UHGV virus genome: UHGV-0136052
Source of the DNA: a virus
Strand: one strand, 5' to 3'
Length of the DNA: 37,081 bases
A program made the translations under genes and the position numbers. Of the stretch, positions 1-17,607 are shown piece by piece (positions within the stretch are counted from its first letter, which is position 1; each line of letters begins with the position of its first letter). A model generated the notes under the pieces. That model saw only the letters and a list, made by a program, of their open reading frames with translations. It was not told the DNA's origin and did no database searches.

Positions 1-49
1 CCTGTGCGACCACAGCGCAAAGTGCGTGATGAATTGGGGTTTTATCCAT

Positions 50-2644
50 CTACTCTATCTCTTTTGCTTTTTTAATTATCAATTCAAGCTCTGTTAAACG
101 AGATTCAATACGTTCACACCTTCTTCGCTGGAATGCAGCCTCCAACCACAAACATTCATCTGGACGCAATCCCCAACGCTCACCAGCATGTACAACCAGT
201 TCCGTTTCACCAGTATCGTATTCTTCAAAGTATTCGTGAACGATGTCTTCTCCTTCAGGGGATTTAGCTATAAATGACACCTTGCGCTGTGCCATTACAG
301 GTTGGTACTCATCATCCCATTTATCATGACATAGCAAGCCAAATCTTGTTCCATCTATCCCCTTTGCAAGAAACGCATCTCTTACCTGCTGTGCAATTGC
401 TCCGAAATGCCAACGAGCAGTATCCGAACCTTTAGCCTTAATATCGGACAACCACTGGTAAACGATAATATTTACGTCACCCCATGCGTCAAGAATTGCA
501 TCCTGATCCACCTCCATGATTTCTGAAAGTTGCTCTACTGTCAGTGGCTTTGTTTTCAATGTCTGGTCTGAAGTATTTATTGCCCCATTAGTTGCATATA
601 CTTGCGTCCACCGTTTAGATGATGTCCCACATGATGACGTATTATCTTTATTAGCACTTATATAGCCATTAACCTCCGCTGACTGACCGATATACGAATA
701 TGAAGATGTTGATAAGGGAGATTTAAATATCCATTGAGCATTGGTAAAGTCATAAATACCGGTATCACCTTTTTCACTAACATGAAAAGTTACATTCCGT
801 AACGTATTCTTTGCATCATAACGGGCGGCTTGTGTTGTTGCCCTCGAAACAGTGAATCCTTTGTCATCAAGGTTTGCCTGCTCTATGACTTCACCACCAG
901 GCATAATTTTACCAAGGCTTAACAAACCAGAGTTAGTGACAATATCATGGGTTGAATCAATGATAATACCAGGCTGATTTCTTGATGTTGTTTTTACATG
1001 CATGACCTGTTGTGGCATTAATGTGTAAAATGTAGTTTCTCGCCCACTATCACCATCTGGTATGCCATTTGTATTCCCCATTACAAGGTCATACCCACCT
1101 GCAATCATACGGAAAAACATTGCTTCTGGTTCATATGTAAGATTGCTAACATCTGGCGTTCCGGTATCATTTGGATCTGCTATTTCATAGGCTCTTCCTG
1201 CACCTGCCTGTATTTGCTGCACCCCAAGATAAACACCATCAAGTGTGTACTGATGCAAATATTTTCTGGTTGAAGAATATGCAGATCCAGCCTGACAAAA
1301 ATAAATAGCAGTACCGTCACACGCAACTGTTTGCATATCCCTCACAAAATCGGCAATTTCAAATTCAAAAGTTGCTTCATTACGATAATCGTAATTGTAC
1401 GCCTGCGGGTTAATAAATTTGCTGGTATCAAATACTTTTACATAATAGCGAATTTGATCTGGTGTTGATGGGCTCTCACCAGGGCCAACATAACGTTTTG
1501 CTGTAGTAATCAGCCATCGACTCATAGGGTCGGTGCATAAAACATTTACCTGATTCTCGTAACCATCTTCCCATATGAGAAAAAACTCTGGTTCAATTTC
1601 ACCACCATCAGTAGGGGTGAATCTGGTGATATACTTTGCGCGATCCTCTCCTTTAGCTGTGCCAGCTAACCCCCATATCTGTAACTGGCCTCTTGTGTTA
1701 CGAAAACCAACGCGCCCTATGGTTAAACCAAGACATTGATGTCCTAATTCTCTACTACCTTTAGTCTCCCAAAGAGGAGTTAACTCTTCATTCCCAAACC
1801 AATTATAAGCAACAACTTTATTAACTTCGTCACCAGAACTAACGCTGCCACTCACATTTACCAAGCAATAAAGAACACTGTCATAATAATCAAGAACAGC
1901 ACCCTGTATGACAGTATTTTTAATTGTTGCCAGTCGCAACCCTGACTTAACATGATTAGGAGTAGAAGGTCTGAAACCTGTATACATCCCCTTTTTTATA
2001 GTTTGTATTCTTTTTTCAGTAAAATCAGCATCTGGCAGTAATCGATTCTCTGTGCGAAAATAGCCATTTATATACTTATTTCCATCAAAAACTTGATCTG
2101 TTATATATGTATTACCCCTTAGATCAACAATCCTTCCTGTGATTTGTTTTTCTAACTCTTGAAAAGATAATGTGTCATCGGTGATGCCATCACCTTTTGC
2201 TCCCCATCCGCGAGGGTCAGCGTCATCACGCCACCGAGACATCTGCAATTCATGATATTTTTTAGCACCTTCCGGGTCTTCTAATTGTTGTCTTAATTGG
2301 TCAGGATCGTACTTAAGCACATTCGGAAAATAGAACTGCTGCGTACCATATGCATCGTAAACAGCCATAGAATGGCCTTGCACGGTAACGAATTTGGAAA
2401 TCTGTCCGTTGTATACCGGGTATCCAGCAGCATTGATAACGATTGGCTGTGGCACCTGAACATAAGTACCATCTTCTCGTTCCAGATATACTGGAATCTG
2501 GTTTTCTGGATTTACCGGATCTGTGTCAATCTTACCGATATAAATTTTTCCATTTGCTACGGTTTTAAAAGAACTAGCCATTGTGAAGAGTTGCGATGGC
2601 ATACCTATCACAACATTTGGGGTTATATCAGGCATATTAGTCAT
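50..2644 (-). CDS. Tailspike: P22 gp9-like head-binding N-terminus, unassigned central receptor domain, C-terminal intramolecular-chaperone-like domain
   Basis: N-terminus [21 protein letters not shown]...[15 protein letters not shown]...VLKYDPDQ matches recalled P22/Sf6 tailspike; start taken at internal Met (ORF extension upstream judged artifact); S-D-x-x-x-K motif near C-terminal 172 aa. Confidence 0.85.
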
Positions 2645-2989
2645 CCTGTTTGAAGATTTAGATATTGAAGAAAACGGAATGACTGCAGACAACGATGCAA
2701 TTGTTTTGAAAAATAACCTTCTATTCATTTAAAAACCATGCAACATGAACAAAACGATTATTTTACAATACTCAAGAATCTTGATCAACAGGCATATTAT
2801 TTATGCGCTTAATGCGTCACTTACAAAAATAAAAACAAGTAATACCTTTATTCCTATCGTCCATGATTTTTATTTTCAAACATTATTAAATAACAATTCC
2901 TATTTATAATATCTGTCATTTAATTTTCTCCAAATACAAGGAATCGCCGCAGCATTGCCGCAGTGATGTATTATTAATCAAAAAGATAT

Positions 2990-3002
2990 GACCACCGTGG
3001 TC
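2990..3002. promoter_or_regulatory. Perfect palindrome GACCACCGTGGTC, putative Mnt-type operator about 65 bp upstream of mnt
   Basis: Half-sites resemble recalled P22 Omnt core (GTCCACGGTGGAC); position upstream of mnt start. Confidence 0.4.
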
Positions 3003-3066
3003 TTATTGAGGATGCAACCAACAGATAATAAGATGCCGATCCACTCACAAAAGCGAGGCATCAAGA

Positions 3067-3318
3067 ATGGGAAGAGATGACCCGCAATTTAATCTGCGGA
3101 TATCTTACGAATTAAAGGAAAAACTAAAACAGCGAGCCAAATCCAATGGCCGCTCTCTTAATTCAGAATTAGTTCAGATAGTGACTGATGCTGTATCAAA
3201 GCCATCCAAAATTTCAGGCTATTGAGACGATGCGGAACGCATCGCTGATGAGCAGTCCGACCTTGTTAAGAAGATGGTGTTTGATACGCTGAAGGATTTG
3301 TACAAAAAACCCACCTGA
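3067..3318 (+). pseudogene. mnt: Mnt-like ribbon-helix-helix repressor interrupted by in-frame TGA at 3223-3225 (codon 53)
   Basis: Hand translation MGRDDPQFNLRISYELKEKLKQRAKSNGRSLNSELVQIVTDAVSKPSKISGY*DDAERIADEQSDLVKKMVFDTLKDLYKKPT matches recalled P22 Mnt (83 aa) across the stop. Confidence 0.7.
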
Positions 3319-3417
3319 CGGTAGGTTAATTTTTGCATTTACCTGGGCCATATTGACTACTTATAAAATGAGATCAATATTTAATCGCCCAATAACGGGT
3401 GTATGTTGAGGTATATC

Positions 3418-3597
3418 ATGGCGAAAAAACCAGGTGAAAACACAGGAAAAAACGGCGGAATATACCAAGAAGTTGGCCCGCGCGGCGGTAAGAAAGACAA
3501 TTTTGCCACCGTCAAGGACAACGAAAGGCTTCCACCAACAACAAAGCCAGGTCATGGCTGGGTATTAGATAAGCGAACTCCAGACAGCAAAAAGTAA
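3418..3597 (+). CDS. Small hypothetical protein (about 59 aa, Gly/Lys-rich)
   Basis: ORF with GAGGT Shine-Dalgarno before ATG; followed by hairpin terminator; family not recognised with confidence. Confidence 0.45.
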   Translation: MAKKPGENTGKNGGIYQEVGPRGGKKDNFATVKDNERLPPTTKPGHGWVLDKRTPDSKK

Positions 3598-3602
3598 TAA
3601 TC

Positions 3603-3626
3603 AAGCCGGGTCACTCCGGCTTTTTG
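3603..3626 (+). terminator. Rho-independent terminator hairpin (AAGCCGG-GTCACT-CCGGCTT followed by T-run)
   Basis: GC stem plus T5 directly after stop of the 3418-3597 ORF. Confidence 0.6.
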
Positions 3627-3976
3627 ATATGTCGCTCGCAGAACTCAACAAGCCTGCTCATTAAGTAGCAGTAAGTCTCGTTGGCTCTTCCTGGTTCAAC
3701 ATCAACACCGACCCTTGAGCAGATATCGAATGCCATGTGAGCGCACTCATGGGCAATAGTAGATAGTTTGCCATTGAACACGCCTATCACATGCAAAACA
3801 CCATTCTCGCTGCTCATTGTATGAGACGCTCCGTTGGCATCCGAGTCCTGCACGTCCACACCAAGTTTTTGATGCAGGCGTTGCCATTCTGGAAAGTCTC
3901 TACAAAACACAATTGTACCGCTCTCAAAGAGCGGAACGAGCATCTTTGGTACGTTTCCAATATTAACTTTTTTCAT
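3611..3976 (-). CDS. Small protein with HEXXH motif (HECAH), putative zinc metallopeptidase-like
   Basis: ORF with AGGA before internal Met (MKKVNIG...); HEXXH in ...STIAHECAHMAFD...; no family assigned. Confidence 0.5.
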   Translation of the reverse strand: MKKVNIGNVPKMLVPLFESGTIVFCRDFPEWQRLHQKLGVDVQDSDANGASHTMSSENGVLHVIGVFNGKLSTIAHECAHMAFDICSRVGVDVEPGRANETYCYLMSRLVEFCERHIKKPE

Positions 3977-4006
3977 GGTATCCTGCACAAAACTAAGGAG
4001 GTTGGT

Positions 4007-4396
4007 GTGAAGCAATTTCTTGCTGCTATGTTCTTATTCATATCTTTTGGGGCTACAGCAGAGTGCTGGGTCGTTGGAGATATGCGGGGAATAAGCTATT
4101 CAGAACGAAATAATTTCCATCCGGAAGAAGATGGTTTTAGTGGAACATTCATCATTAAGACAAGCGGTGAAGATGCCAGCATCACATATTCTGGGACAGA
4201 TGCGGGCGGCATGGCTTACAAAGCATTGTCTAAAAACTCCATCATAGGAATCGGCGCGAATGGCGAAACTCAACGCGTTATCGACTCATGGGTAATACAT
4301 CCTACTGGAACAGTTTTAATGTCAAAAACCATTTCCGGTTATGGAAATATGGATTCAACCAAAGCTTTTGTTGGAAAAGTAAAAAGAAAATGTTAG
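4007..4396 (+). CDS. Secreted small protein (paralog A), GTG start, predicted Sec signal peptide
   Basis: AAGGAGG 6 nt before GTG; hydrophobic N-terminus ending ATA|ECW; mature about 112 aa with Cys near both ends; about 30 percent identical to 28389-28793 product. Confidence 0.65.
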   Translation: MKQFLAAMFLFISFGATAECWVVGDMRGISYSERNNFHPEEDGFSGTFIIKTSGEDASITYSGTDAGGMAYKALSKNSIIGIGANGETQRVIDSWVIHPTGTVLMSKTISGYGNMDSTKAFVGKVKRKC

Positions 4397-4420
4397 CGAT
4401 TGAATCCAATTTCCCATACG

Positions 4421-6262
4421 TTACTGCTGTGTTGCCTCAGTAGCAAACAGCGGTCTGATGGCATTCGCAGCGTTATTTAGCGCTCTTTCATAGGCTGGTG
4501 TTCCTGCTTTGGTGTTTGCCAAACGAAGAAGCATATTCCTTGCGGCTTTGGACTCATACAAACGCATCATTGCACCAAAGCCAGCCTCAAGCCCCATTGA
4601 TACTCCAAGAGTCGCAGTTGCGCCAATCGTCCTTATCCTGTTGGCTTGTGATTGCCCCGTCTGAGTTACTACATTTGCGGTGTCTGACCTTGCTGTTTGC
4701 TGTAGAACTTCATGAAGAGCATCAAGCTCTTTCATGTGCTTTCCAGAAAAAATAGTGTTGTAAATTTCACCGCCTGACTGAGATTTAAGCTTATTAACTT
4801 CAGTGATGAACTTGGCTGGAGAGTCACCGGCCTTTTCCGCTATTTTGCTGACGTAAGCTGCACGCATAGCATCTTTCCCTTTATCATCCAATGCGCTCCA
4901 GATTCGTTTCACGTCAGATGGCTTTCTGCTTAATACAACGGTATTTATAAGTTCAGGACTGGCTTCACTGCTTGCCTTGTTGAGCTTGTTAGCAATGTTT
5001 TTATTAAGCACCTTATTATAAACGTTTGCATAATCGGAGTTTGCTTTAAGGTATTTTGCTGCGTCTGATGCACCGAGGTTTTTTGCAACTGCGTTACGAA
5101 GATCTTTTGACATTGCATTCTCTACCATATTGGTAGCTGCTTTTGCCTGGTTGGGGAAGACCATAGCATCTCCCTGAACATTGGATCTAAATGCTGTTCT
5201 GTGCTGACGCAAGAGATCAAACGTAACATCCAAATCAGTTGCAGGGTTTGCTAATTCTTCACGTAGGTTACGCAAGGATGTAAGCAGGCTTTGATTGGCA
5301 GACGTCCCAAGCCGTTCCTGTCTTGCGATCGCTGTATTCAGAGCATTCATGGTATTTGTGGTATCAACTGCGGCATTACCCATTTTATTGGTGACGTCAT
5401 TGATAACAGCGCCAGCGGCATCCTTCCGTCCCCTTAACGTGGTGGTCAGAGATTTCACCACATCATCAGGGTTGTACTCACCAAAACGGTCAAAATAATT
5501 GCTTACCAGCTTACTACGCGTTGCATATTGCTCCGCTCGCTTTGAGCCTGTCCCGAGCAAAGCCCCCTCAGCATCCTGAGTAAGTCCGCGAGTGAAAGCA
5601 TTTTTCGGCGGGATAACATCAGATGTCATTGGTGTCACGCCCATCGATTCTGATGTGGCAATTTTCTTCGCCACTTCTGGCGCAATATCACCTTTTATAG
5701 CCGTTATTCCACGCCCTATTCCCTTTGCTGCTGCGGAAAGAACACCCTGAGCGGCAAGGTTAACTCCGGCATTTTTAGCTGCATTTTGTGCGAAATCACC
5801 TTTCTGATTTGCGGCCTCTGCCAGTGATCCAATAGCCATGCTTCCTGCCGTTCCAACTCCTGGAACTAAATACCCGCCAATTGTTTCTCCAGCTTGAGCG
5901 TAGGGGTCTGTCGGTCTGTCTACTGGACGATAGACATCATCCAATACTTTTGGCCCACCAAGCCCCTGACTGATTGCATTAATCAGACTTGCGCCACCCT
6001 GCAATACGTCAAATGGTATGTTTACCAGACCACGACCAGCCTGTTCTGCAATTTGCCCTGCACTTTGACCACCAGTGAGCCAATCGCCAGCTTGTTGCAT
6101 CAATGATGGTTCTTCCCGTGTTGGTGCATTATTGTCCTGATTAACTGTTTTTTGCTGAACAGCCTGACCAGCAAAATACTCATCAATGGCGGTGCCAATA
6201 TCTTCCGTGCTCGTACCATCAGGGAAGGTAAATGTCTTACCGTTTGCAGTTACTTTCATCAT
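4421..6262 (-). CDS. Ejection/internal protein, P22 gp16-like
   Basis: Size (613 aa) and position after gp20 in P22 gene order; Ala/Gly-rich. Confidence 0.75.
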
Positions 6263-7674
6263 TCCACCGTAAATTGAATGCCTGATTTTGAGGTATATGA
6301 TCCAACCTGATTCCGTGGTTCTCCTGAAGGCGTCGAATCTTGTGCTGGCGCTGCGTCAGTATTCATTGACATATACCGCTTAACGGCACTCCCCAATGAT
6401 TCACCTTTTTTAACATCCAACCCCAATATCTGACCGCCATTACGCGATTGTCCAGGGTTGCCATTCGCGCTCATCCACTCGGCTTTAAACTCATTAAACT
6501 GCGCGTTTCGTCGCTCAAGGTTTGCCATTGCATCAAGCCATCTTGCGACCGTCTCAGGGTTATCCATGTCAGTTGGCGCACCCTGTCGAACGATCTCAAC
6601 GTCTTTATCCGTTGCTGGGCCGGGAGGTAGGAATTTAAGAACCTGACTGTTAACAAGGGCATTTTGGCGAATGCGCAAATCACGCAATGTCGTATCACTT
6701 CCGGTAAGTTTTGCGAACATGTTCTGTGCGTTACCGAACAAACCTGTCGTTGGTTTTTCTGCTCTGAACTGTTGAGCAAGCGCACTCATAGAATTGGCTG
6801 AGTTTGATGATGCTGTGGCATTGTTTACAGCCGTCTCGATGCCTTTTTCCATGTTTACTGACAGCTTAGGTGCTTCGCTAATCAACTGCTGAGCCTTTTC
6901 CTGCGCTTGCTGCATCTTAAACCCGAACTCTTGCTGATCCAGAGCCAAGCGTTGTGCTGCGATATTGTGCCCAGTCATTGCTGACTGATAGGAAAGGTTT
7001 TGCCCTCTCGCCTGAAGTGCTTCACCAGCCTGATTGCTGCGGATTGTTTCTGCCAGCCTGCCTCGGTCAATTTCACGACCAGCCATCTTATCCTGAACAG
7101 CAAACGCCTTTTCTGGCCCAAGTGCACCGAGAGACATAGTAGTCAGCATGTGTGATAGCTGCTCTGGATTCTGGATACCTGTCTGAATCATCCAGTCAGC
7201 ATTAGCGCCAACGCGATTTAACCTGTCCTTGTTGTCAGTAATGAATTTACTGTAGGCTTCCGGTCCCTGAGAAAGAGCGACGTTAGCTCTCATGGCTAAA
7301 TCGCCCATATCGTTGCGTTGCTGATCATTAAGACCTGAAAACGCCTGTTGTGCCTGTGCAACAAACGCTGGATTTTCCTGGGCAAACTTAAATAGTCCCG
7401 ATGGATCACCAGAAGCCCATGCATCAGCATGAACCTTATTGAACGCACTAATCGCTTTCTGTTGCTGTTCCTGATTGTAAATATCAGCAACTCCAGCCAG
7501 ACCACGTAACGCGGTCAGACCAACGTTATTTGCACCTGATCGAGCCAATTCATTGTTTTCGCGGATCAGACCAAGCGTTGCGTTAATGTCGCTTGCCTTT
7601 GGCGCATTCTCATTTTGCGTACCGATGCCAGCCAGAAAACCACCAGAATTAATACCCTGTTGCCACGTAGCCAT
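6259..7674 (-). CDS. Ejection protein, P22 gp20-like
   Basis: 471 aa, same length and position as P22 gp20. Confidence 0.75.
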
Positions 7675-7683
7675 GATTACCCC

Positions 7684-8379
7684 TTAAAACAACGAGCCAA
7701 GCAGACCAAGACCGCCACCAACAGCGGCACCGATACCAGTACCAATACCAGGAACAATGCTGCCAAGTTGTGCTCCAGCAATTGCTCCAGAGGCAGCCCC
7801 GCCTATTGCAGATTGAAGGCCGGAAGGTCTATTAGCGTTTGCCGCCGCCAGTGCCGCGCTTTGCTGTGAAATCTGGCTCATGTTGTTGGCATATGTTTGC
7901 CCGGCGTTTGCCTGTCCCTGAAGAGCGCCAAGACCAATATTTGCCAGATTCTGGTAGTTGTTCATTTGTCCAGATAGCCATTGCTGGCCAAGAGTTGGTG
8001 CGATTGTTGCTAACTGATTACTGGTTGCGGTGGAACCTAATCCACCTGTTGCTTCCGCTGCCGCCAGACTCTGATAGCGCGCCTGACCAGCAAGGTCTTT
8101 GTACTGCTGAGAGTTGTAATACTGGTTAAGCGCCTGACCTTGCCCCTCCAGAGACGATAAGTTCTCGAGGCTGCCGACATACTTCTCAGCCAGAGGAGTA
8201 AACGGTTTCAGGTTGTTCATGATGGTGTTGAACTGCTGATTTTGCAGGTCTGCGGCATACTTCTGAGCTTCTGCTGCATACTTTGCGCTTTTATCAGAAC
8301 TGCCACCTTTCCCGCCTTTTTCAGGGTAATAAGGTTCCTCGCCGCGCAGTTTTCTGCCCAGCGTAAATGCATATAACAT
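7684..8379 (-). CDS. Ejection protein, P22 gp7-like
   Basis: 231 aa, Gly/Ala-rich C-terminus, P22 gene order. Confidence 0.7.
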   Translation of the reverse strand: MLYAFTLGRKLRGEEPYYPEKGGKGGSSDKSAKYAAEAQKYAADLQNQQFNTIMNNLKPFTPLAEKYVGSLENLSSLEGQGQALNQYYNSQQYKDLAGQARYQSLAAAEATGGLGSTATSNQLATIAPTLGQQWLSGQMNNYQNLANIGLGALQGQANAGQTYANNMSQISQQSAALAAANANRPSGLQSAIGGAASGAIAGAQLGSIVPGIGTGIGAAVGGGLGLLGSLF

Positions 8380-8381
8380 GG

Positions 8382-8837
8382 CTATCTCCCGTGATTCAGG
8401 AAGTCGATTAGTTCTTCGCGTGTGGCGCTGTAAAACGTCACGTCATCCACGCCTTTGAAGTATTTCTTGATGGTTCCTACACGCTTAAGGCCAATCATTG
8501 CGCAGTACATCTGCCCGTGGCGGAATTTGCGTGCAGCAAATGATGTGACGCACTGAACGGTGGTGTTGGTCAGAATGTATCGCCAGAACGCCAGCCCTAT
8601 TTCCTTGCTGAAGCCGCGAATCTCTGGCAGGTACATGGCGTGGCAATCGAATGTAAGCGGCTGAATCTCCTGATAGTAAACAATGCCGCCAAACTGCCCG
8701 TGCACGTTAACTTCAAAGTAACGGCAATCAGGTTTGTAGCCGTATTCATCACCGTTATTGCTCCCGGCGATAATGTCAGGGTGATTTCCGACTGCTTCTA
8801 TCAGGTCGATGTTTCGCGTTGGTTTGAATGTAATCAT
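8382..8837 (-). CDS. Head assembly protein, P22 gp14-like
   Basis: Position between gp26 and gp7 homologs. Confidence 0.6.
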   Translation of the reverse strand: MITFKPTRNIDLIEAVGNHPDIIAGSNNGDEYGYKPDCRYFEVNVHGQFGGIVYYQEIQPLTFDCHAMYLPEIRGFSKEIGLAFWRYILTNTTVQCVTSFAARKFRHGQMYCAMIGLKRVGTIKKYFKGVDDVTFYSATREELIDFLNHGR

Positions 8838-9538
8838 CAGTCAATCAGCCCATGTAATCTAAGTGCTGTTTCAAGCGCCAGAATACGCTGCCGCGCCTGC
8901 TGCAAACCTGTAGCGAGAGCTGCGACTTCGGATTGTGTGTATGTAGTGCCGACAGTGTATGACTGGTTAGCGTTGAATGAGCCAAGAAGTGGCGTACCTG
9001 TGGCTGCAGTCCATCCGGTATTTCTTGCTCCAACAACCTGAATTCCATCAACTGAATATGATGTTTTTACATCCAGCGGTGACGCAAGAGACTGCGATTT
9101 GGTTACAGTTTTCGATACGTAATCACTCTTAATGTCAGATACATCGCTTTCTACGCCATCCAGTCTTTTGTCAACAGTGACCAGATGCGCCTGAATATCG
9201 ATAACCTCATCCAGCAAGTAATCAACATCGCTACGCAGTACGACTATCTTCCCTTCGGCGGTTGTTAACCTGACCTCAAGGAGATTTATCGCTTTTGTGT
9301 TTGCGGTGATTCTTGCATCGTGGTCAGCCAGTTCGACATCCTGTTCATCGTTTTTTACTTGGGCATCATAAGCGCCCTGACCAGCCTGATTTGCCTTTCC
9401 AGCAATTGCACCGACATCAGCCCCCTGATTAATGACATACAGCAGGTAAGACTGGCTGAAGATATTGCGTGGAAGGATTGATGTATCGAGCCGCGTCGCC
9501 TGAACAATAACCGGTGTGTTGAGATTCGAATCAGCCAT
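8837..9538 (-). CDS. Tail needle, P22 gp26-like
   Basis: 233 aa; N-terminal [18 protein letters not shown]...SYLLYVI and C-terminal ...[14 protein letters not shown]... match recalled gp26; central coiled coil. Confidence 0.85.
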
Positions 9539-10956
9539 TACTCAATCCTTATCTGAGCGCCAGACAGAGTGACAGGTGACTTCGTGATAATGCGCAATTT
9601 GAAGCCGACATTTTTCCTGATGCGCCCGACTCGCTTCCACAAAACGCGTTTGTCGTAAACGAACGGTTCATTCTGCTCAATCATCTGCTCACGACCGTAA
9701 TTGATGCCGTCAGTGGTTGCAGAGAGGAACAGGCGGTCAGCGTACTGAGCGACACCCGTCGATGATTCAACTTCCAGATCGAAGCATCTGCCGTTATCCG
9801 CTTTGAACAACGGAGTAAACAACAGGTGTTCCTGTTGCTTGTCGTACTGGCTGCTGATATCGAACTGCAATTTGCCGATAACCGATTCCAGCTTATCTCC
9901 GCACGTTATCTGATTGCCTTCGTAAATGAAGTCGATAGCGCGGTACACATCGTCATACAGGCCTGTTTTCAGCACACACCATTGCGGACCATTGGCGCTT
10001 GAAGATGCGTCGTACACGAGAACATGGCGCGGAAGGTGGATAATCAGCAACTCATGCGCATCAAACCGCAACGATTCCATCACGCCATCAGCCAGTTCAT
10101 CAGCGGTATAGGAACGGAGGATTTTCTCAATGCTCGCGCTGGCGATTGGTGATACCTGACCGGAGCCGATGATGTATACAGACGGCGCACCTGTTGCCGG
10201 ATTGCTGATGAACGCATAAGAATCAGCGAATGGCGTTTTGCAGTAAGTCCCGGCAATACCTTTCTGCACCATCAATGATGGCTGTGCGACATACAAAGCG
10301 GCACCAACGGTGGTTGCCCCCGTCAGGGAGAAATATTCAATCGTCGATGAACCAAAGCAGACGATGAAGTCTCGCCATGTTCCGATGCCGATGATGCCGT
10401 CAGGCTGAGACTCAGCACGATATTGTGCGCTGTAACGGTCAGGATGAGATTCGTCTTCAAGGTCAGTGATAAACCATGAATCAGTACCGTCTTTTGACCA
10501 CGCATAACGCCCACGTAAGCGCGTAATGTCACGAACCGAACCTAACTCATACTGCGTGAATCCGCTATCTGTAGGCCAGTTTGAGACGGTTTTAACCGTG
10601 CCATCATAACGATACTCTACCAGTTGCCCGTTAACGCCTACCGCCTGTGATGTTCGACCATGCGCCATTGATACGCGACCACTTCCGGCAACATCACCGA
10701 CCTCACTTTCGCCCTTATACAGTTTGCCACCACACACGCGATAAACAGCATTCTGCGCCATGTTGTACTCGACGCCTCGCGATACGCCGTTCACATCAGA
10801 ACGTTTGGCAATGCCCGGGAATGAGCGAAGATATCCGCTGCTGTTCAGGATTTCTTTGGGTGTAGCCAACATATTCACTGGCAGATAGTCGATATAGTCG
10901 GCGTTTCGGAAGTCTTTGCCGACACCTTTCATAAGCGGAAGTTGCTGAATCGGCAT
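9538..10956 (-). CDS. Tail accessory protein, P22 gp10-like
   Basis: 472 aa, same length and position as P22 gp10. Confidence 0.8.
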
Positions 10957-11457
10957 TTATTCGCTCCCGTTATCGCAAGGTTCCTTTCGGTGGAAGTAAT
11001 TCCAACCATTCCACTTCGCCAACTGGTTACCGCTACCAACAGGCATACGGTTTGGATAACCGGACTTACATTTAGCGGCTTTTGCTCTGTCCATTGCAGA
11101 CAGTTTGACGAGTCGCTCTTTCCCGTATCTGGCAGTGGTTATAAGTTTTGCTGACGCTTCCAGCGCATAATCCGGAGCAATGCGGCAGGCAAGGTTGAAA
11201 ATGACAGCATTGATAGCGTTATTTGATAAACCGTGCTCATCTCCCGGATTTGGAGCGACATCTGCATCAGCGAAAATGTAGCCAACATTGATACCTGGTG
11301 ACGCATCACCGCCAAGCCATTCCGCCATCATCATTTCAAGGTCGTTGACACCATCTTCCATGGACTGAGGTTCGACATCGGTTAACGTGGCATTTGATGC
11401 CACACCGAGCTTACGTAATGCCGCAAGAACTAAATCACCCTTCGTTGTCAGGTTCAT
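10957..11457 (-). CDS. Tail accessory protein, P22 gp4-like
   Basis: From internal Met: [32 protein letters not shown]... matches recalled gp4; upstream SQSQSQ extension is an ORF artifact. Confidence 0.8.
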
Positions 11458-11677
11458 CTGCTGCCGCCTTAGGTTTTCGACCAGGCTTTTTACGCTGTTT
11501 TTCTTCTGGCTCTGGCTCTGGCTCTGGCTCTGCAACATCCTTCAGAAGGTCATCCGGATGTGCAAACCAACCAGCATCCAGATATTCCTGAAGCTCTTCG
11601 GCTTTCACGATTTCAAAGTCGTAGCCAACGCCTTTCCACTTCTTCATGTCGCCATGACGAAAGATCATGTGTGTCAT
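11435..11677 (-). CDS. Small ORF between coat and gp4 with EPEPEPEP low-complexity segment
   Basis: Position equivalent to a small ORF after the P22 coat gene; start uncertain. Confidence 0.35.
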
Positions 11678-11721
11678 GCTTGTCTCCAGATAAAAAAGGG
11701 AGCCGAAGCTCCCTCTGGTTA

Positions 11722-13017
11722 TCACGCGGTCTGGTTAGGCAGACCAACACCAATTGCCTCTGGTCGTACAGCACATGCTGAATACCACACAGCAATACGG
11801 CACTTACCAGACAGAGTGTTGATATCACCCTGCGTTGCGAAGATGCCGTTAACACCAATACCAGGAATGCTGAAGGAAGACGTTTTCATACCAGCAAACA
11901 GTTCATGGGTTACCGGGATCGGCTGAGACAGCAGGCGGATTGAGTCATCAGCCCAGAACACGTTAGCGGTGGTTGTTGCCACGTTCAGAACGTTCACCGG
12001 AGTGTTATCAGCAAGAGAGGTGTTTACATTAGCGTAAGCCTTCTCTTCTTTTGTCAGTGACGCGTCATCCAGTGCAATCGGCTTCGGCGTGATTTCGATG
12101 TGAGTACTATCGATCACACGGGTGATTGAGAAAGTCGCATCATCAGTCAGCACGTTCTTCGCCATCTGAGACAGGAATTTCACACCAGTGAAGCTGATTT
12201 TGTCGCCGCGCTTAAATCCGGCGGTGGAGGATACGGTCACCGTTGCAACACGATTGTCGACGTTCTCTTTGTTACCATCGGTATCAAGGGTGTATGCCTG
12301 CGGCTTAAACTTCTGCGCACCAGAAACAGTTACACCAGTAGCGGTTGATTTGGTAACTGCCGGAAGTTTCGGTGAGCGAAGAATTTCATCAAAGCCAGCA
12401 ATCTGACGCTGAATAGTACCGTTGCGATACGCTTCTTCAGGAACTCGCCCGAAGATGTCGCCATCTACCAAGTTGCGGCCTGCTTTGCGGTAATCGTCAG
12501 GGTTCAGGAAGTAACTGATGCCCATGTCGCGGTTGAGTTCGCGGGAGAACATCAGGCGCTCTGCATCAGACACAAAATCCCAGCCAGACAGGCCTGTAGA
12601 TGGACCAATTGCGCGGGTATCGTGAACAACAAGCGAACCCATTTCAGTTGCCTGTTTGGCAATCGCTGACTCAATGTTATTCGCCAGTTTTTTGGCGGAT
12701 GCCTGGATGCGGCGACGGTAAGAACGCTCATCACGCAGGTCATCTGCACGAAGCTCGAAGAAATCGTTATCCGGATCGCCCATGTTGCATTTCACGGAGA
12801 GTTCCAGAATCCCTGTTGCGTTGCCAGTTAAATCCCAGCCAGTCTGGGTTGGCGCTTCCTGCTCAACAGGCATCCACACGGTATTGCTTGAACGCTGCAT
12901 GGATTTTGCCGGAGGGGTGTATTTTGTCACTTTGGACGCCATTGGCGTCAGGTTCTGGACGGTTTCGATGATTTCATCCAGAGCATACGTGACCAGTTGA
13001 CCTTCATTTAATGCCAT
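11722..13017 (-). CDS. Major coat protein, P22 gp5-like
   Basis: 431 aa; MALNEGQ...MQRSSNT.WMPVEQE...[21 protein letters not shown]...ATQGDI.TLSG.CRIA.WY match recalled P22 coat. Confidence 0.9.
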
Positions 13018-13928
13018 TATCGAATTCCTTTATTCAGTTGCGCCTTAAGCTTGCGGTACGTCTCTACATCCCCTTTGTTTGCTGCCGCTTCCATCTGCTT
13101 TTCAATCGCAGAGATATTTGCAGCAACAGCGTGTCCCTGAATTGGTTCATCAGGTAACGGGGCTTCTGAAACAGGCTTGGCTCGAGGCTTGAGAGTTAAA
13201 CGTTCTGACAGTCGAGTGAGTTCAATCAGCGCGGATTGCCCGTCCATCGCCAGCAACTGGCGTGTTTTCTCAGGATTAGCACCAAGGTGATACATGAGAG
13301 CGGCGGATTTCTCCGGGAAGAGGCGCATGATGTCGGCACCGACTGCTGGCGGCACCAGTTGCATGAATGCATCCTCTTTCTCCTGATAGTCAGGGATATT
13401 GAGCTTTTCCGCTGCGTCGTAGTGCTTACGGGCTGCCTCGACGTATTGCGCTGATTGCTGGGTGAACTCCTGAGTTTTGCGCCCCTGCTCGGCGACAGCC
13501 TGGCTTCGTGCGTCCATAGCCTTGATCTGCCATTCACTGTTTGCCTGCTGGAAGGCAGCCAGTGCGCGGCTCTGGTCATAGTCGTACTTAGCCAGTGCAT
13601 CTTCGGAAAGATAATCGTTAGGGTCTGGTTGTTTTGGTAACTCAGGGTTCACCCGCAGGTGTTCCGGCAATTCTCCACGCTTAACCGCTTCCATCTGCTG
13701 CTCAAGCTCACGCTGGCGTTTGCGTTCGATGCGGCGACGGGCAAATTCAGCATTAGTTGCCGGGTCTTGTTTTGGTTTCTCATCGTCTTTCAGGACAATC
13801 TCGAAGCCTTCTTCCTGACCTGCGTTGTCGTTGGCATTATCGACAACTAAGCCATCAGCAGATGCCGCTGCATGATTGCCGGGCAGGGTTAATTCTTCAG
13901 AAGCCTGAATGTCGGTGGTTTGGTCCAT
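13017..13928 (-). CDS. Scaffolding protein, P22 gp8-like
   Basis: 303 aa, charged helical, between portal and coat. Confidence 0.85.
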
Positions 13929-13941
13929 GATTAACTCTCTC

Positions 13942-16107
13942 TTATTGAGGTGTCTCGGCTACTCCGCCGGAGGGGATTTGAACTTGACGCATAAGATTAG
14001 CGAAATCCATGCGTTGTGAATGAGTCTGGTCTGCATCTTTAAGAAGCAGCTCAGCGTTAGCACGAGCATCTTTGCTGCGCTGTTGCTGGAATTGACCTAC
14101 GAGCTTGAGGTACTCACGCAGTTCTGCCTGCTTGTCGAGGTCCATATTGTTGAAGATTTCTGCAATCTTCGCGGCGTTGAGTTGGTTTTGGGCTTCAACC
14201 TTGGCGGCTTCAACCTGAATCTGCGCCTGTTGGTTCTCTGCCTTGAGCAATTCAGCCTGACCTTGCAGAAGGATACCCTGCGCCTGAATTTGCTCTGCTG
14301 ATGGCTGCTGCGGCTGTTGTTGTGCCTGCTGTACCATCTCCATCTCTTCAGGTGTTTCTGGTTTCTTCAGCCCCATCATCACCAGTTGCTTGTTCGCGTA
14401 CTCTCGCATCATCTCGACGCCTTTACCGTCAAGCAGCGTGAAGTATTGCAGCATCAGCATCTGGAACTCTGGAGTACCTTGCGGAACCTTGGTTAGTAAC
14501 TCCTGAATCTCTGCGCGGTTCTGTTCCTTCATGCTCTGGAAGGATGGCCCAACGTCCGTATAGCACTCATAGCGACCACGAATGTCGTTGAGTGTGACCA
14601 CATTGCCGGACTGGTAATCGACAACTTGCGCATAGAGTTGAACGTCTTTCTCGCTTCCATCTTCAAGTGTCAGCGTTACATGACGAGGAACGTCATAAAT
14701 ATCGTTGACCATTGAGGCATAAATCTCGCCATCACGTCGCATTGCGGTAGCCAGGTTATCCTGGAACACGTATGTCTCAAGGTCTGCCCGCATGTTCAGT
14801 TGATTGACGGTATCGAAAGCGACCTGACCATTTGCCGCCTGCGCATCCACACCAAGACTAGCCACCTCTTTCACTGCGTTGGTGGCAGCCTCAAGCATGT
14901 AAGCGTTGGCTTGCGGCACTTCAGGGTTTTCCATGTAGGAGATTGGACCAATCGGCAGGTCGTTACCGTTTTCATCGGTCTTGTTCTGCAGATAGTACGG
15001 ATAGTCATCATTTCCACCGTACATGTATTCGTAGCCTTCGATTTGCTCAGGGAAGAAGGTCGGTTTCTTCTTCGGTGAACGAGCAACAATATCGGCGTTG
15101 AATGACATGATCATGTTACGAAGGCGCTGACCGTCTTTCGTCAGCCTTACCACTCCTTCGTAGCACTCCTTGTCACCAGCGAATGACCATTCGCCATACA
15201 CTGGAACGATTGGAATATGCTCTCCGGCTATCTTCTCGCGGTCTTTCAGTATCTGCGTGCAGGTGATGATCGACTTATACACACGCCGACGCTTCACCTT
15301 GCGCTCTGCTACCTTAATGAATCCACGATTAGCCAGGTCGTCGATGACGTCTTTGATATCCTGCTGGTAATAGCTGACCGGCTCACCTGTCAGCGGGTCG
15401 CGGTAGATGAAGACCTTCTCTTTCTTCTCTTCGACCTCGTAATACTCAGCGACGTAGACGACATCATTCGATACCCAAGGGAACAGCCATGTATCGTTCG
15501 GATTCTGGAAAGATGGCAAGGTATCCGGATCAATACCGTAATCCTCTGCGAACTCTTTCCAGCCATTGCGTGACAAAGCGTTAATCACCGTGCAGTGCTT
15601 AGCGTCGCTCTTATCCATCTGCTTGCTATTGGCGTCCCATATGACGTGTGAGCAGGCTTCATGGATTGGAAGGCGTCGGATTACCTGATTGTTGCTTGTT
15701 GGATCGTTGTCTTCGTACTGCGTGACCAGACGCCATGCACCAACGCCGGACTCTATCTGCTCACGAACGCCAACGTTAACGGCAATCTTTGCCGTGTTAT
15801 GGCGCATATCAGTACGATACATCCCCATCAACACATCGGCAGCATCAGGATTAGCGCCGTCTTTGGGTCGGAAGAGAACGTCGATAGGGTTCCGGCGCAT
15901 CTCTGCGACCAGTTTCCTGACCACCGGGCGAACAACATCGAATTGTCCGCGATATTGCAGAGTCGTGTAGTTTGATAGCCAGTCATCCCATTGCGACACT
16001 CGGCTAAAATACAGGTCATTTGTCGCCTCGGTTCTGGCTTCATCGCTCGCCATCCAGTCTGCGTCAAACTTACACAGAATGGAATTGAGTCTGTTTTCGT
16101 CGGCCAT
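13942..16107 (-). CDS. Portal protein, P22 gp1-like
   Basis: 721 aa; N-terminus [18 protein letters not shown]...[35 protein letters not shown] matches recalled P22 portal. Confidence 0.92.
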
Positions 16108-17607
16108 TTAAGTTCTCCGTGCGATGGGCCTGATTGGGGCTGGTATCTTTTTCTCTTTTGGTTTTTTGATGTCGCGCATCATTTTTGCGAAGCGGCGCAT
16201 CATGTATGCATAGCGAACGGCGGATAGCACGTCGTCGTTAAGCTTGACGATTTTCCCGTTTTCATCACGGTGATAGAGGCGGAACTCCTCAAAGAATGGC
16301 TCACAGGTGTTGAATACTTTGAAGCGACCGTCGAGCATCATGTCTCGCAATTCAGTGATGCCAGGCTCAACAGCATTACCGCCATCAGGCCATGTCGCAT
16401 GCTCCTGCAACATCATAAAACCAGCGTCCGCGTACTGCCCTTTAAGCTGCTCACCGCCGCCCTTCTCATGCTGGTTTCCGTCATGAGGCCATGCGGTTGG
16501 CACTTTATGCGCCCATGATTTAACAGCTCACCACGCCTGAACGGCTGTCTTTTCTTTCGCCTTCCACACGCGTGAAACGTAGATTGTGTCTGCGTCCTTA
16601 TCCCACCAAAGCTGAACCTGCGCCTGAGGGTGATCCCATCCGAAATCCATCCCACCAATTACGTAGAAGTGATCAGGACACTCGAACGGCTGACACTTAA
16701 TCGTCTCTTCCGGTATCTGGAAGATTCGACCGCTACCCATCGTAGGAATACCGCGAGCACGCGCCTCTCTCTCATGCTCTGGATAGGATGCGATGATTTG
16801 CTCTTTCTGCTCGTCGGTATAGTGCTCAGCGTCATAGATGGTCATGTTGACCACTTTCTGCGACTTGCTGGGGTTCTTCAGGAACTTGGTAACAACGTCA
16901 GACATCCCCATCAGCGGGGTAAACGTCAGAATTGAGAATTGCCCGTATTTGTTGGTACGGGTAAGCCCTTCGCCATAAATGCTGTATGGTGGTTCTTCGT
17001 CAAACCACACGCCGTGGATTGTGTCACCCTGCCAGCGAGCACGGCCTTGCGAGTATGGTTTGAAGTAGCAGATTGAAATGCCATCTTCAACGCCATCAGC
17101 CGTGTGATGCTTAACCAGAAGATGATCAACAAGGTTCGGAAAGAAAGGAGACTTCTTCCAGCTAATGATGTCTTCTTTCGGTATGGAACCGTAGCCAGGT
17201 TCACCATTCTCTTCGATACGACCGCACAGGATGCGTTGAGTCGTTTTGGTTACAGTCTCGTTTGTCTCTCCACCAATCCAGAAGACAACAGGCTCATAGA
17301 AACGCTTACCTTTCCACTCACCGCCATATTTACCATCAGCAGGATAGCCTTTTGTGCCCGGATAACGCCCGGTAAGGTGAAACGCGACTTCAGCAGCACC
17401 AGTAAATGACTTACCAAGCTGGTTACCAGCCATAAAACATCGCTCTGGATAGTCATGCCCGGCGTCGATGAACTCACGCTGTTTGCTGTATGGCGTAAAT
17501 TCATATAGCAGGTGTGTGTTACGGTAGTTCTCTTCTTCTTCGAGTAGCTCGAGCAATTCGATTTGCTCTTCGTCGCTCAGGTTATCAAGAATCGCGTCCA
17601 GTTCCAC
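16108..17607 (-). pseudogene. Terminase large subunit, P22 gp2-like, interrupted by in-frame TGA at 16528-16530 (codon 360 of 499)
   Basis: Two ORFs (359 aa and 131 aa) share one frame and are separated only by a TGA; total 499 codons equals recalled P22 gp2 length. Confidence 0.75.

Follow-up and report, generated by a model that had tools for sequence, protein, structure and literature searches.

A tailspike of a P22-like Escherichia coli prophage built from known parts around a predicted five-bladed propeller

Introduction

Tailspikes determine which bacteria a phage infects, and they serve as typing and anti-capsule reagents. In this study we analysed the tailspike gene of the UHGV virus genome UHGV-0136052 (37,081 nucleotides, hereafter the window), which is a P22-like prophage of Escherichia coli. 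In the tailspikes P22 gp9 and Sf6 gp14, a head-binding domain is joined to a right-handed beta-helix receptor domain and a retained trimerisation domain; their genes lie at the late-operon end, and a role in host range is presumed. The CUS-3 tailspike has the same type of head-binding domain, and shares with K1F gp17 a neck and cap, one propeller per subunit (a six-bladed sialidase with an inserted barrel), a beta-stalk and, at the C-terminus, an S74 chaperone that contains a Ser/Lys pair. To our knowledge, the receptor domains of P22-like tailspikes have so far been beta-helices or, in CUS-3, a sialidase propeller, and all characterised members (P22, Sf6, HK620 and CUS-3) are enzymes.

A propeller of another type occurs in the receptor-binding proteins of staphylococcal phages (phi11 Gp45, 80alpha gp61 and P68 gp17; Pfam PF21311), which bind N-acetylglucosamine (GlcNAc) on the wall teichoic acid of Gram-positive cells. 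In these proteins the propeller is preceded by a coiled-coil stem and followed by "tower" domains, and there is no S74 domain. Until now this fold and family have been known only in phages of Gram-positive bacteria.

The tailspike described here is a new combination of known parts. An earlier note on the window had read the protein as a mosaic in which a P22-type head-binding domain is fused to an unassigned receptor domain and an autoproteolytic, chaperone-like C-terminus. This architecture is fully supported and all three parts are real, well beyond chance; what had been missed is that the neck and cap, and also the stalk end with the chaperone, are common to the CUS-3/K1F endosialidase tailspikes. 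The fusion of a head-binding domain with such a chaperone is already known from CUS-3, and the difference lies in the centre of about 460 residues. The P22 head-binding domain has here been spliced to a predicted five-bladed propeller, a stalk and a chaperone, which represents a third receptor solution for P22-like tailspikes.

Results and Discussion

A predicted five-bladed propeller in the centre of the tailspike

The predicted receptor-recognition module occupies positions 1022..1951 (residues 232-541; the tailspike and all its parts are on the minus strand, and residue numbers throughout are those of an 864-residue product starting at 2644). Its conserved motifs are I-Q247-G, G-H302-Q303, M-Q438...D443...Y448 and Y-E505-P-E507. 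The modelled fold is that of a five-bladed propeller homologous to the phi11-type platforms. The view that the centre is unlike the receptor domains of P22 and Sf6 thus held: similarity to these proteins stops near residue 121, and structure prediction, which was to decide between a beta-helix and a beta-propeller, returned a five-bladed propeller, not a right-handed beta-helix of a P22/Sf6-type endorhamnosidase.

Searches with the single sequence found few relatives of the centre. There was no match in Pfam or, by sequence, in the PDB, where only chance matches to antibodies were obtained. The propeller falls into no PHROG family, and tblastn against 50,697 phage genomes returned no match to it; a full-length relative of the protein is likewise absent from phage genomes, the best matches being the K1-capsule endosialidase tailspikes of vB_EcoP-720R6 and CUS-3. 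A word-indexed search of 5.8 billion proteins retrieved just two relatives (69% identity), and its repetition with a 26-sequence profile brought no gain. The family became visible when 1.84 billion cluster representatives were searched exhaustively by HMMER, with a three-sequence profile as the query; just 41 clusters were recovered at E<=1e-3, six of them at E<=1e-30. The domains found in the family proteins vary (End_N_terminal, Gp53-like_C, Phage_tail_fib, T7 tail, S74).

An AlphaFold2 model built from an alignment of 26 cores reached a mean predicted local distance difference test score (pLDDT) of 80 and a predicted template modelling score of 0.72. Within residues 232-541 it contains twenty strands in five groups of four, and these are followed by a beta-rich stalk segment at 575-642. 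The modelled propeller thus has five blades of four strands each, is of the phi11 platform type and superposable on phi11 and P68; Foldseek matched it to 80alpha, phi11, P68 and NF5 at about 1e-11. When the family profile was compared with the PDB, P68 gp17, 80alpha gp61 and phi11 Gp45 were found at 1.1e-5 to 2.9e-4, and hhalign scored the family against 80alpha gp61 at 87.7%. In addition, two distant members pass the cutoff (23.7) of the Pfam profile Phage_RBD_prop (PF21311) over the homologous region (P0011 with 29.1 bits and P0013 with 26.5 bits).

The best fold match among the predicted viral structures of BFVD was the neck appendage gp12 of Bacillus phage GA-1 (2.6e-18), and the hhalign comparison of the family with this protein gave 97.8% and E=7.6e-13 over 312 columns. 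GA-1 gp12 is a true homologue of the propeller and keeps the QG, GHQ, QD..CDG..Y and E-x-E motifs; the stalk end and the Peptidase_S74 domain behind its propeller (chaperone structure PDB 3gud) are of the same kind as well. It differs in that its phage is phi29-like and infects a Gram-positive bacterium, in its other N-terminal anchor and in the low identity of about 18%. Since GA-1 gp12 also ends with an End_tail_spike segment and Peptidase_S74, the propeller-stalk-chaperone unit is an old module. The phi11-type proteins, by comparison, have quite different flanks: in the window protein the propeller is preceded by the head-binding domain and cap and followed by the stalk and S74 domain. One mobile module in this way links the receptor-binding repertoires of phages of Gram-positive (Staphylococcus, Bacillus) and Gram-negative bacteria.

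Two established types of propeller enzyme were considered for the centre. An identity with the K1 endosialidases was rejected, as the centre has no similarity to the sialidase propeller: no Pfam propeller match (End_beta_propel/GH58) was obtained, and BLASTP gave no match to CUS-3 between residues 200 and 658. Because the propeller is of the five-bladed phi11 type and not a six-bladed sialidase, polysialic acid is not expected to be the substrate. For the five-bladed propeller glycoside hydrolases (GH43/32/68/62), neither a match to the family profile nor the catalytic Asp/Glu residues at the family positions were found.

Parts shared with known tailspikes

The P22-type head-binding domain corresponds to positions 2297..2635 (residues 4-116). 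The Pfam profile Head_binding (PF09008) matches exactly these residues over its whole length (positions 1-113 of 113; E=4.3e-61), which bears out the assignment of the first 115 or so residues to the P22/Sf6 domain. Tailspike structures of Sf6 and P22 were matched at 1e-58 to 1e-42 (Sf6 7sg7, E=2.3e-58; P22 2xc1/1lkt, about 1e-46), and residues 1-121 are 99% identical to phage JEP4. The protein resembles P22 gp9 and Sf6 gp14 in this domain, in the position of its gene and in its presumed role in host range; in place of their beta-helix and retained trimerisation domain it has the propeller and a chaperone predicted to be cleavable.

The neck and cap follow at 2048..2296 (residues about 117-199) and hold an 11-residue motif. 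Residues 4-199 are 69% identical to the CUS-3 tailspike (BLASTP), and Pfam End_N_terminal (PF12218) matches residues 149-196 with E=2.6e-5, its 24.3 bits narrowly missing the cutoff of 26.3. The comparison suggests that the neck and cap (about 121-199) are common to tailspikes of the CUS-3/K1F endosialidase type; End_N_terminal is also present in 11 of the 30 members of the propeller family. The PHROG label "colanic acid degradation" (phrog_8280) was rejected as a clue to the substrate, since the match goes no further than residues 4-250, a stretch that takes in the head-binding domain and cap but only the very beginning of the propeller.

Behind the propeller, a beta-rich stalk is encoded at 572..922 (residues 575-691), which includes a module of about 50 residues (about 592-645) and an endosialidase-type stalk end. 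The strands at 575-642 are modelled with pLDDT values of 74-91. Pfam End_tail_spike matches residues 661-691 weakly (E=0.11), PHROG 1171 ("tail spike protein") matches residues 590-854, and residues 659-854 are 36% identical to the CUS-3 tailspike (BLASTP). With positions 396-448, the family profile also picks up the module at about 710-869 (residues 592-645) in numerous tail-fibre proteins that are unrelated in other respects (P0020-P0043), each with one to four copies; phage fibre shafts seem to use it widely as a repeat.

The C-terminus was assigned to an endosialidase-type intramolecular chaperone (53..568, residues 693-864), whose release after folding is predicted. The Peptidase_S74 profile (PF13884), which the earlier note had named as a check, matches residues 692-758 with 40.2 bits against a cutoff of 22. 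The C-terminal chaperone of the K1F endosialidase (3gw6) aligns with residues 651-854 (E=2.3e-33), and further matches were obtained to the chaperones of GA-1 gp12 (3gud, 1.7e-14), T5 pb1 (4uw8, 2.3e-8) and additional tail fibres. The predicted self-cleavage motif S692-D-Q-T-L-K697 lies at 554..571. In alignment with 3gw6, 9vvr and 7y5s, S692 and K697 stand on the columns of the catalytic serine and lysine, so that the endosialidase-type Ser/Lys spacing noted before, with exactly 172 residues (693-864) after the motif, was confirmed. In 3gw6 itself K697 aligns with a lysine and S692 with an alanine, which we take to be the S911A substitution. The pair is retained (S...K) in the homologue P0002. 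A Ser/Lys dyad with equal spacing is known for endosialidases and MYRF (PMC3742443), and the cut in the window protein is expected after S692.

The whole tailspike is encoded within a single uninterrupted open reading frame (ORF) on the minus strand, 50..2728. The gene had been placed at 50-2644; its integrity stood, and its start was moved by 9 nt. The ATG at 2644 would give 864 residues, with Met-Thr-Asn added over the product of the ATG at 2635-2633. In the RefSeq protein WP_021516144.1 of E. coli A26, whose DNA is 100% identical across window positions 1-3000, the start is at the position corresponding to 2635, with 861 residues and the N-terminus MPDITPNVV. A putative ribosome-binding site, AGGA (2644..2647, minus strand), could serve this start. 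As it lies 8 nt upstream of the ATG at 2635 but directly abuts the ATG at 2644, the former is the better start, and the coding sequence likely extends over 50..2635 (861 residues, stop codon 50-52). The exact protein was found on 45 contigs, and its 90%-identity cluster has 147 members, all listed ones being from E. coli. Public databases annotate it only as "phage tailspike protein".

A predicted glycan-binding site

In the alignment of the 26 cores, whose identity to the window sequence goes down to about 20%, six residues are invariant (H302, Q303, Y448, G470, E505 and E507) and four nearly so (Q247, W324, Q438 and D443). The GlcNAc cavity proposed for phi11 comprises Met164, Gln165, Thr211, Met329 and Gln330 (PMC4901313). 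In phi11/80alpha, M164-Q165, H209-G210-T211 and M329-Q330 align with I246-Q247, G301-H302-Q303 (T211 itself falling on the residue after it) and M437-Q438 of the window protein; each of the three segments around the proposed pocket is thus matched by a family motif. For placing the conserved residues, the closure of the propeller in P68 (PMC6795507) was used. According to DSSP, Q247, the GHQ motif, Q438 and E505/E507 mark the start of the innermost strand in blades 1, 2, 4 and 5 of the model. The conserved residues would therefore lie together on one face, where the central channel opens. Propeller proteins usually have their ligand or active site here, and the alignment with the phi11 pocket points to a glycan-binding site there.

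The following course of events can be proposed. The head-binding domain, which is homologous to those of P22 and Sf6, would fix the homotrimer to the tail hub as in these phages. The neck and cap would lead to one propeller per subunit, with the three propellers set around the trimer axis, as in the phi11 receptor-binding protein and in endosialidase. Each propeller would recognise a cell-surface carbohydrate at the mouth of its channel, and the same site would cleave or modify the glycan, allowing the short-tailed virion to work its way to the outer membrane. During maturation, the S74 domain would trimerise, nucleate the folding of the beta-stalk and then cut itself off after S692 by means of the S692/K697 pair, leaving a mature spike of about 689 residues. 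Finally, the receptor cassette between the head-binding domain and the downstream ORF would move between prophages by recombination. Taken as a whole, we consider this explanation somewhat better founded than its denial.

As regards catalysis, we favour, by a little, the view that the predicted channel site also cleaves or modifies the glycan, because the studied P22-like tailspikes are enzymes and because the invariant His, Asp, Tyr and Glu-x-Glu residues are kept from Bacillus to E. coli. The propeller could instead be a non-catalytic, lectin-like adhesin for a sugar epitope, within the same architecture and maturation, in which case the glycan layer would be penetrated by other means, or the receptor would lie near the membrane, e.g. 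in the lipopolysaccharide (LPS) core or the enterobacterial common antigen. The closest structural and sequence relatives of the propeller speak for such a function, since they are binders and have the conserved motifs in common with it. However, as stated above, the P22-like tailspikes studied so far are all enzymes, and the invariance of His, Asp and Glu-x-Glu over Bacillus, Staphylococcus and E. coli hosts exceeds what is usual for a specificity pocket. Moreover, GA-1 gp12 takes the position of phi29 gp12, which degrades teichoic acid. All this considered, an adhesin is a possibility to be taken seriously, to which we give distinctly less than an even chance; the small remaining probability falls to other readings.

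Several observations weigh against the proposed explanation as a whole and should be set out together. Only carbohydrate binding, and no enzyme activity, is described for the receptor-binding proteins of phi11, 80alpha and P68 (PMC4901313, PMC7048315, PMC6795507). The motifs shared with these proteins may be structural or serve purely for ligand binding. No sequence or profile match of the centre to any glycosidase, lyase or esterase family was obtained, and the absence of a match to carbohydrate-active enzyme families is what an adhesin would predict. The link to the phi11-type propellers depends on the family profile and the predicted structure, as the window protein itself has no match to PF21311 Phage_RBD_prop at E<=1. 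A full-length AlphaFold2 model of the monomer from three sequences reached a pLDDT of only 37 and was discarded. Carriage by lysogens reflects past infection or recombination, so that the survey of O-antigen types described below is an indirect guide to the receptor. Finally, the large-terminase gene of the window (16108-17607, minus strand) is interrupted by an in-frame TGA at codon 360 (16528-16530, ...AVQAW*AVKSW...), which leaves two ORFs, one of 359 and one of 131 codons. Unless this stop is a sequencing error, the present copy of the prophage may be unable to package DNA or to assemble into virions.

The terminase stop, together with the portal and terminase genes flagged as frameshifted in A26, could also be taken to mean that the prophage is defective and that its tailspike is decaying and no longer functional. 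We regard this as most improbable: the 861-codon ORF is intact, it is kept at 99.4-100% identity in 14 complete genomes and at four insertion sites, all catalytic and family-invariant residues are present, and the 90% cluster is large. The portal ORF of the window (13942-16107, 721 residues) is also intact, although RefSeq flags that of A26 as frameshifted.

A bolder form of the enzyme hypothesis places the propeller, as the first member from the Gram-negative side, in a so far uncharacterised family of carbohydrate-active phage enzymes. It would use the invariant His302, Tyr448 and Glu505/Glu507 at the mouth of the channel, and the GA-1 appendage, perhaps together with the staphylococcal platforms, would belong to the same family. 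The propeller would be directed at a surface polymer that many E. coli serotypes have in common, for which the enterobacterial common antigen, LPS core, colanic acid and poly-GlcNAc may be considered as candidates. We judge this combination of claims to be unlikely, but its consequences would be considerable. If the conserved channel residues are catalytic, the module would define a new family of glycan-processing phage enzymes, and the platform domains of the staphylococcal phages would have to be re-examined. If the target is a serotype-independent polymer, the host range of a P22-like phage would not be tied to the O-serogroup.

O-antigen types of the carriers

The tailspike gene was found with 99.4-100% nucleotide identity in 14 of 5426 complete E. 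coli genomes. The O-antigen survey covered 13 of these carriers (MLI114 was left out) and was confined to O-antigen clusters, leaving aside capsule (kps) loci and LPS core types. An O7 cluster was found in nine carriers (five EC0026B records of sequence type ST484, AST19, AST205, E100341 and H1827/12), O120 wzx/wzy genes in A26 and A3, an O15 cluster in MLI121, and in SW070919 an O16 cluster broken by the insertion sequence IS1. O120 was rejected as the specificity suggested by the A26 host, because only two of the 14 carriers are of this type.

The tailspike had been proposed to be a capsule or O-antigen depolymerase of different specificity, with a comparison of host serotypes as a check. 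That comparison went against a single O-antigen, the near-identical gene being present in O120, O7, O15 and disrupted O16 genomes. As the carriers have four different O-antigen clusters, specificity for one of them is unlikely, and the target is probably not one particular O-antigen. The enzyme part of the proposal stays a hypothesis in view of relatives that bind and of the missing glycoside hydrolase or lyase match.

A depolymerase with a new specificity, directed at a single type of O-antigen or capsule, would nevertheless be analogous to P22, Sf6, CUS-3 and the other studied P22-like tailspikes, and the layout of head-binding domain, cap, propeller, stalk and chaperone is that of the CUS-3 K1-capsule endosialidase. 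The O7 cluster is also enriched, as it was found in 9 of the 14 carriers compared with 99 of the 5426 genomes overall. This enrichment is largely due to one lineage, since five of the records derive from the isolate EC0026B, the only O7 carrier whose flank was read. With O120, O15 and the disrupted O16 cluster in the other carriers, we hold a single-type depolymerase to be improbable by a wide margin, although the carriers may have a K antigen in common.

The four O-antigen loci, one of them disrupted by IS1 in a probably rough strain, fit a common receptor other than the O-antigen, as an adhesin could have. The same is true of the A26 prophage stretch read around the integrase, in which no O-antigen-modifying genes are annotated, serotype-converting genes of the gtr or oac type among them. 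Having no association with one O-antigen, the tailspike may well have a receptor that is unusually broad or out of the ordinary.

Exchange of the receptor cassette

Among the genomes whose flanks were read, four insertion sites of the prophage were distinguished (thrS side, dacD/sbcB, ybhB/bio and torT). The neighbouring immunity genes differ between these sites, and the ORF downstream of the tailspike is constant. This ORF encodes a predicted membrane protein of 97 residues (phrog_1443, 1.3e-55; nothing meaningful in Pfam). Its ATG (47-49, minus strand) directly follows the tailspike stop codon, and the gene (1..49) runs on past the window edge; the full ORF was seen in A26 and at L001 19756-20049. 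It adjoins the tailspike at all four insertion sites, and occurs in 68 phage records, many of them lambda-like phages. In other phages it comes after unrelated receptor domains, as in the P22-like phage JEP4, whose own, different tailspike immediately precedes it. The ORF may act as a conserved 3' flank for the exchange of receptor cassettes, or else encode a factor that is expressed late and serves exclusion or conversion.

In base composition, the tailspike region stands out as foreign. The GC content of the gene is 0.41 (0.30 at third codon positions, GC3), compared with 0.50 for the other virion genes (GC3 of the portal gene, 0.58). Along the window, positions 1-3000 have a GC content of 0.37-0.41, against 0.48-0.53 for the other virion genes (5000-27000), and even the head-binding domain is GC-poor, with 0.42. 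It looks as if receptor cassettes are exchanged between the head-binding domain and the downstream ORF as conserved flanks, and these flanks suggest how such swapping takes place.

The two relatives with 69% identity carry the core behind other N-terminal anchors, one with an S74 chaperone and the other with a different C-terminus. They lie on a multi-tailspike phage contig and a myovirus-like contig. The former (L002, Logan contig SRR30129133) is a multi-tailspike phage, in which the propeller-S74 unit of P0002 is used behind a different anchor. In its region 761-15292 at least four other large receptor-binding proteins are encoded in a row, the neighbours of P0002 being a TIM-barrel NCTSP, two Tail_spike_N proteins (one with a WcaM domain) and a WD40/Big_2 protein.

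Gene neighbourhood

The annotation of the A26 prophage is that of a P22-like phage, with an integrase, a lambda/P22-type early region, lysis genes, and P22-type terminase, portal, scaffold and coat genes. These are followed by gp4- and gp10-like genes, those for the DNA-transfer proteins, an Arc-type immI region and, last, the tailspike, which thus ends the late operon downstream of the ejection-protein genes and the immI region.

The Arc-family repressor gene beside the tailspike (3067-3318, plus strand) is a pseudogene with an internal stop in A26, and in the window its open frame has only 52 codons (3067-3225). In other carriers the immI genes next to the same tailspike are different, and include an antirepressor gene, two Arc genes, a PIN-domain gene and ClpP. 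At the other end of the A26 prophage, the integrase gene is adjoined by a truncated and frameshifted gene for a type III effector of the ShET2/EspL2 family (L020 6438-7233), with which the last 630 or so bases of the window should overlap.

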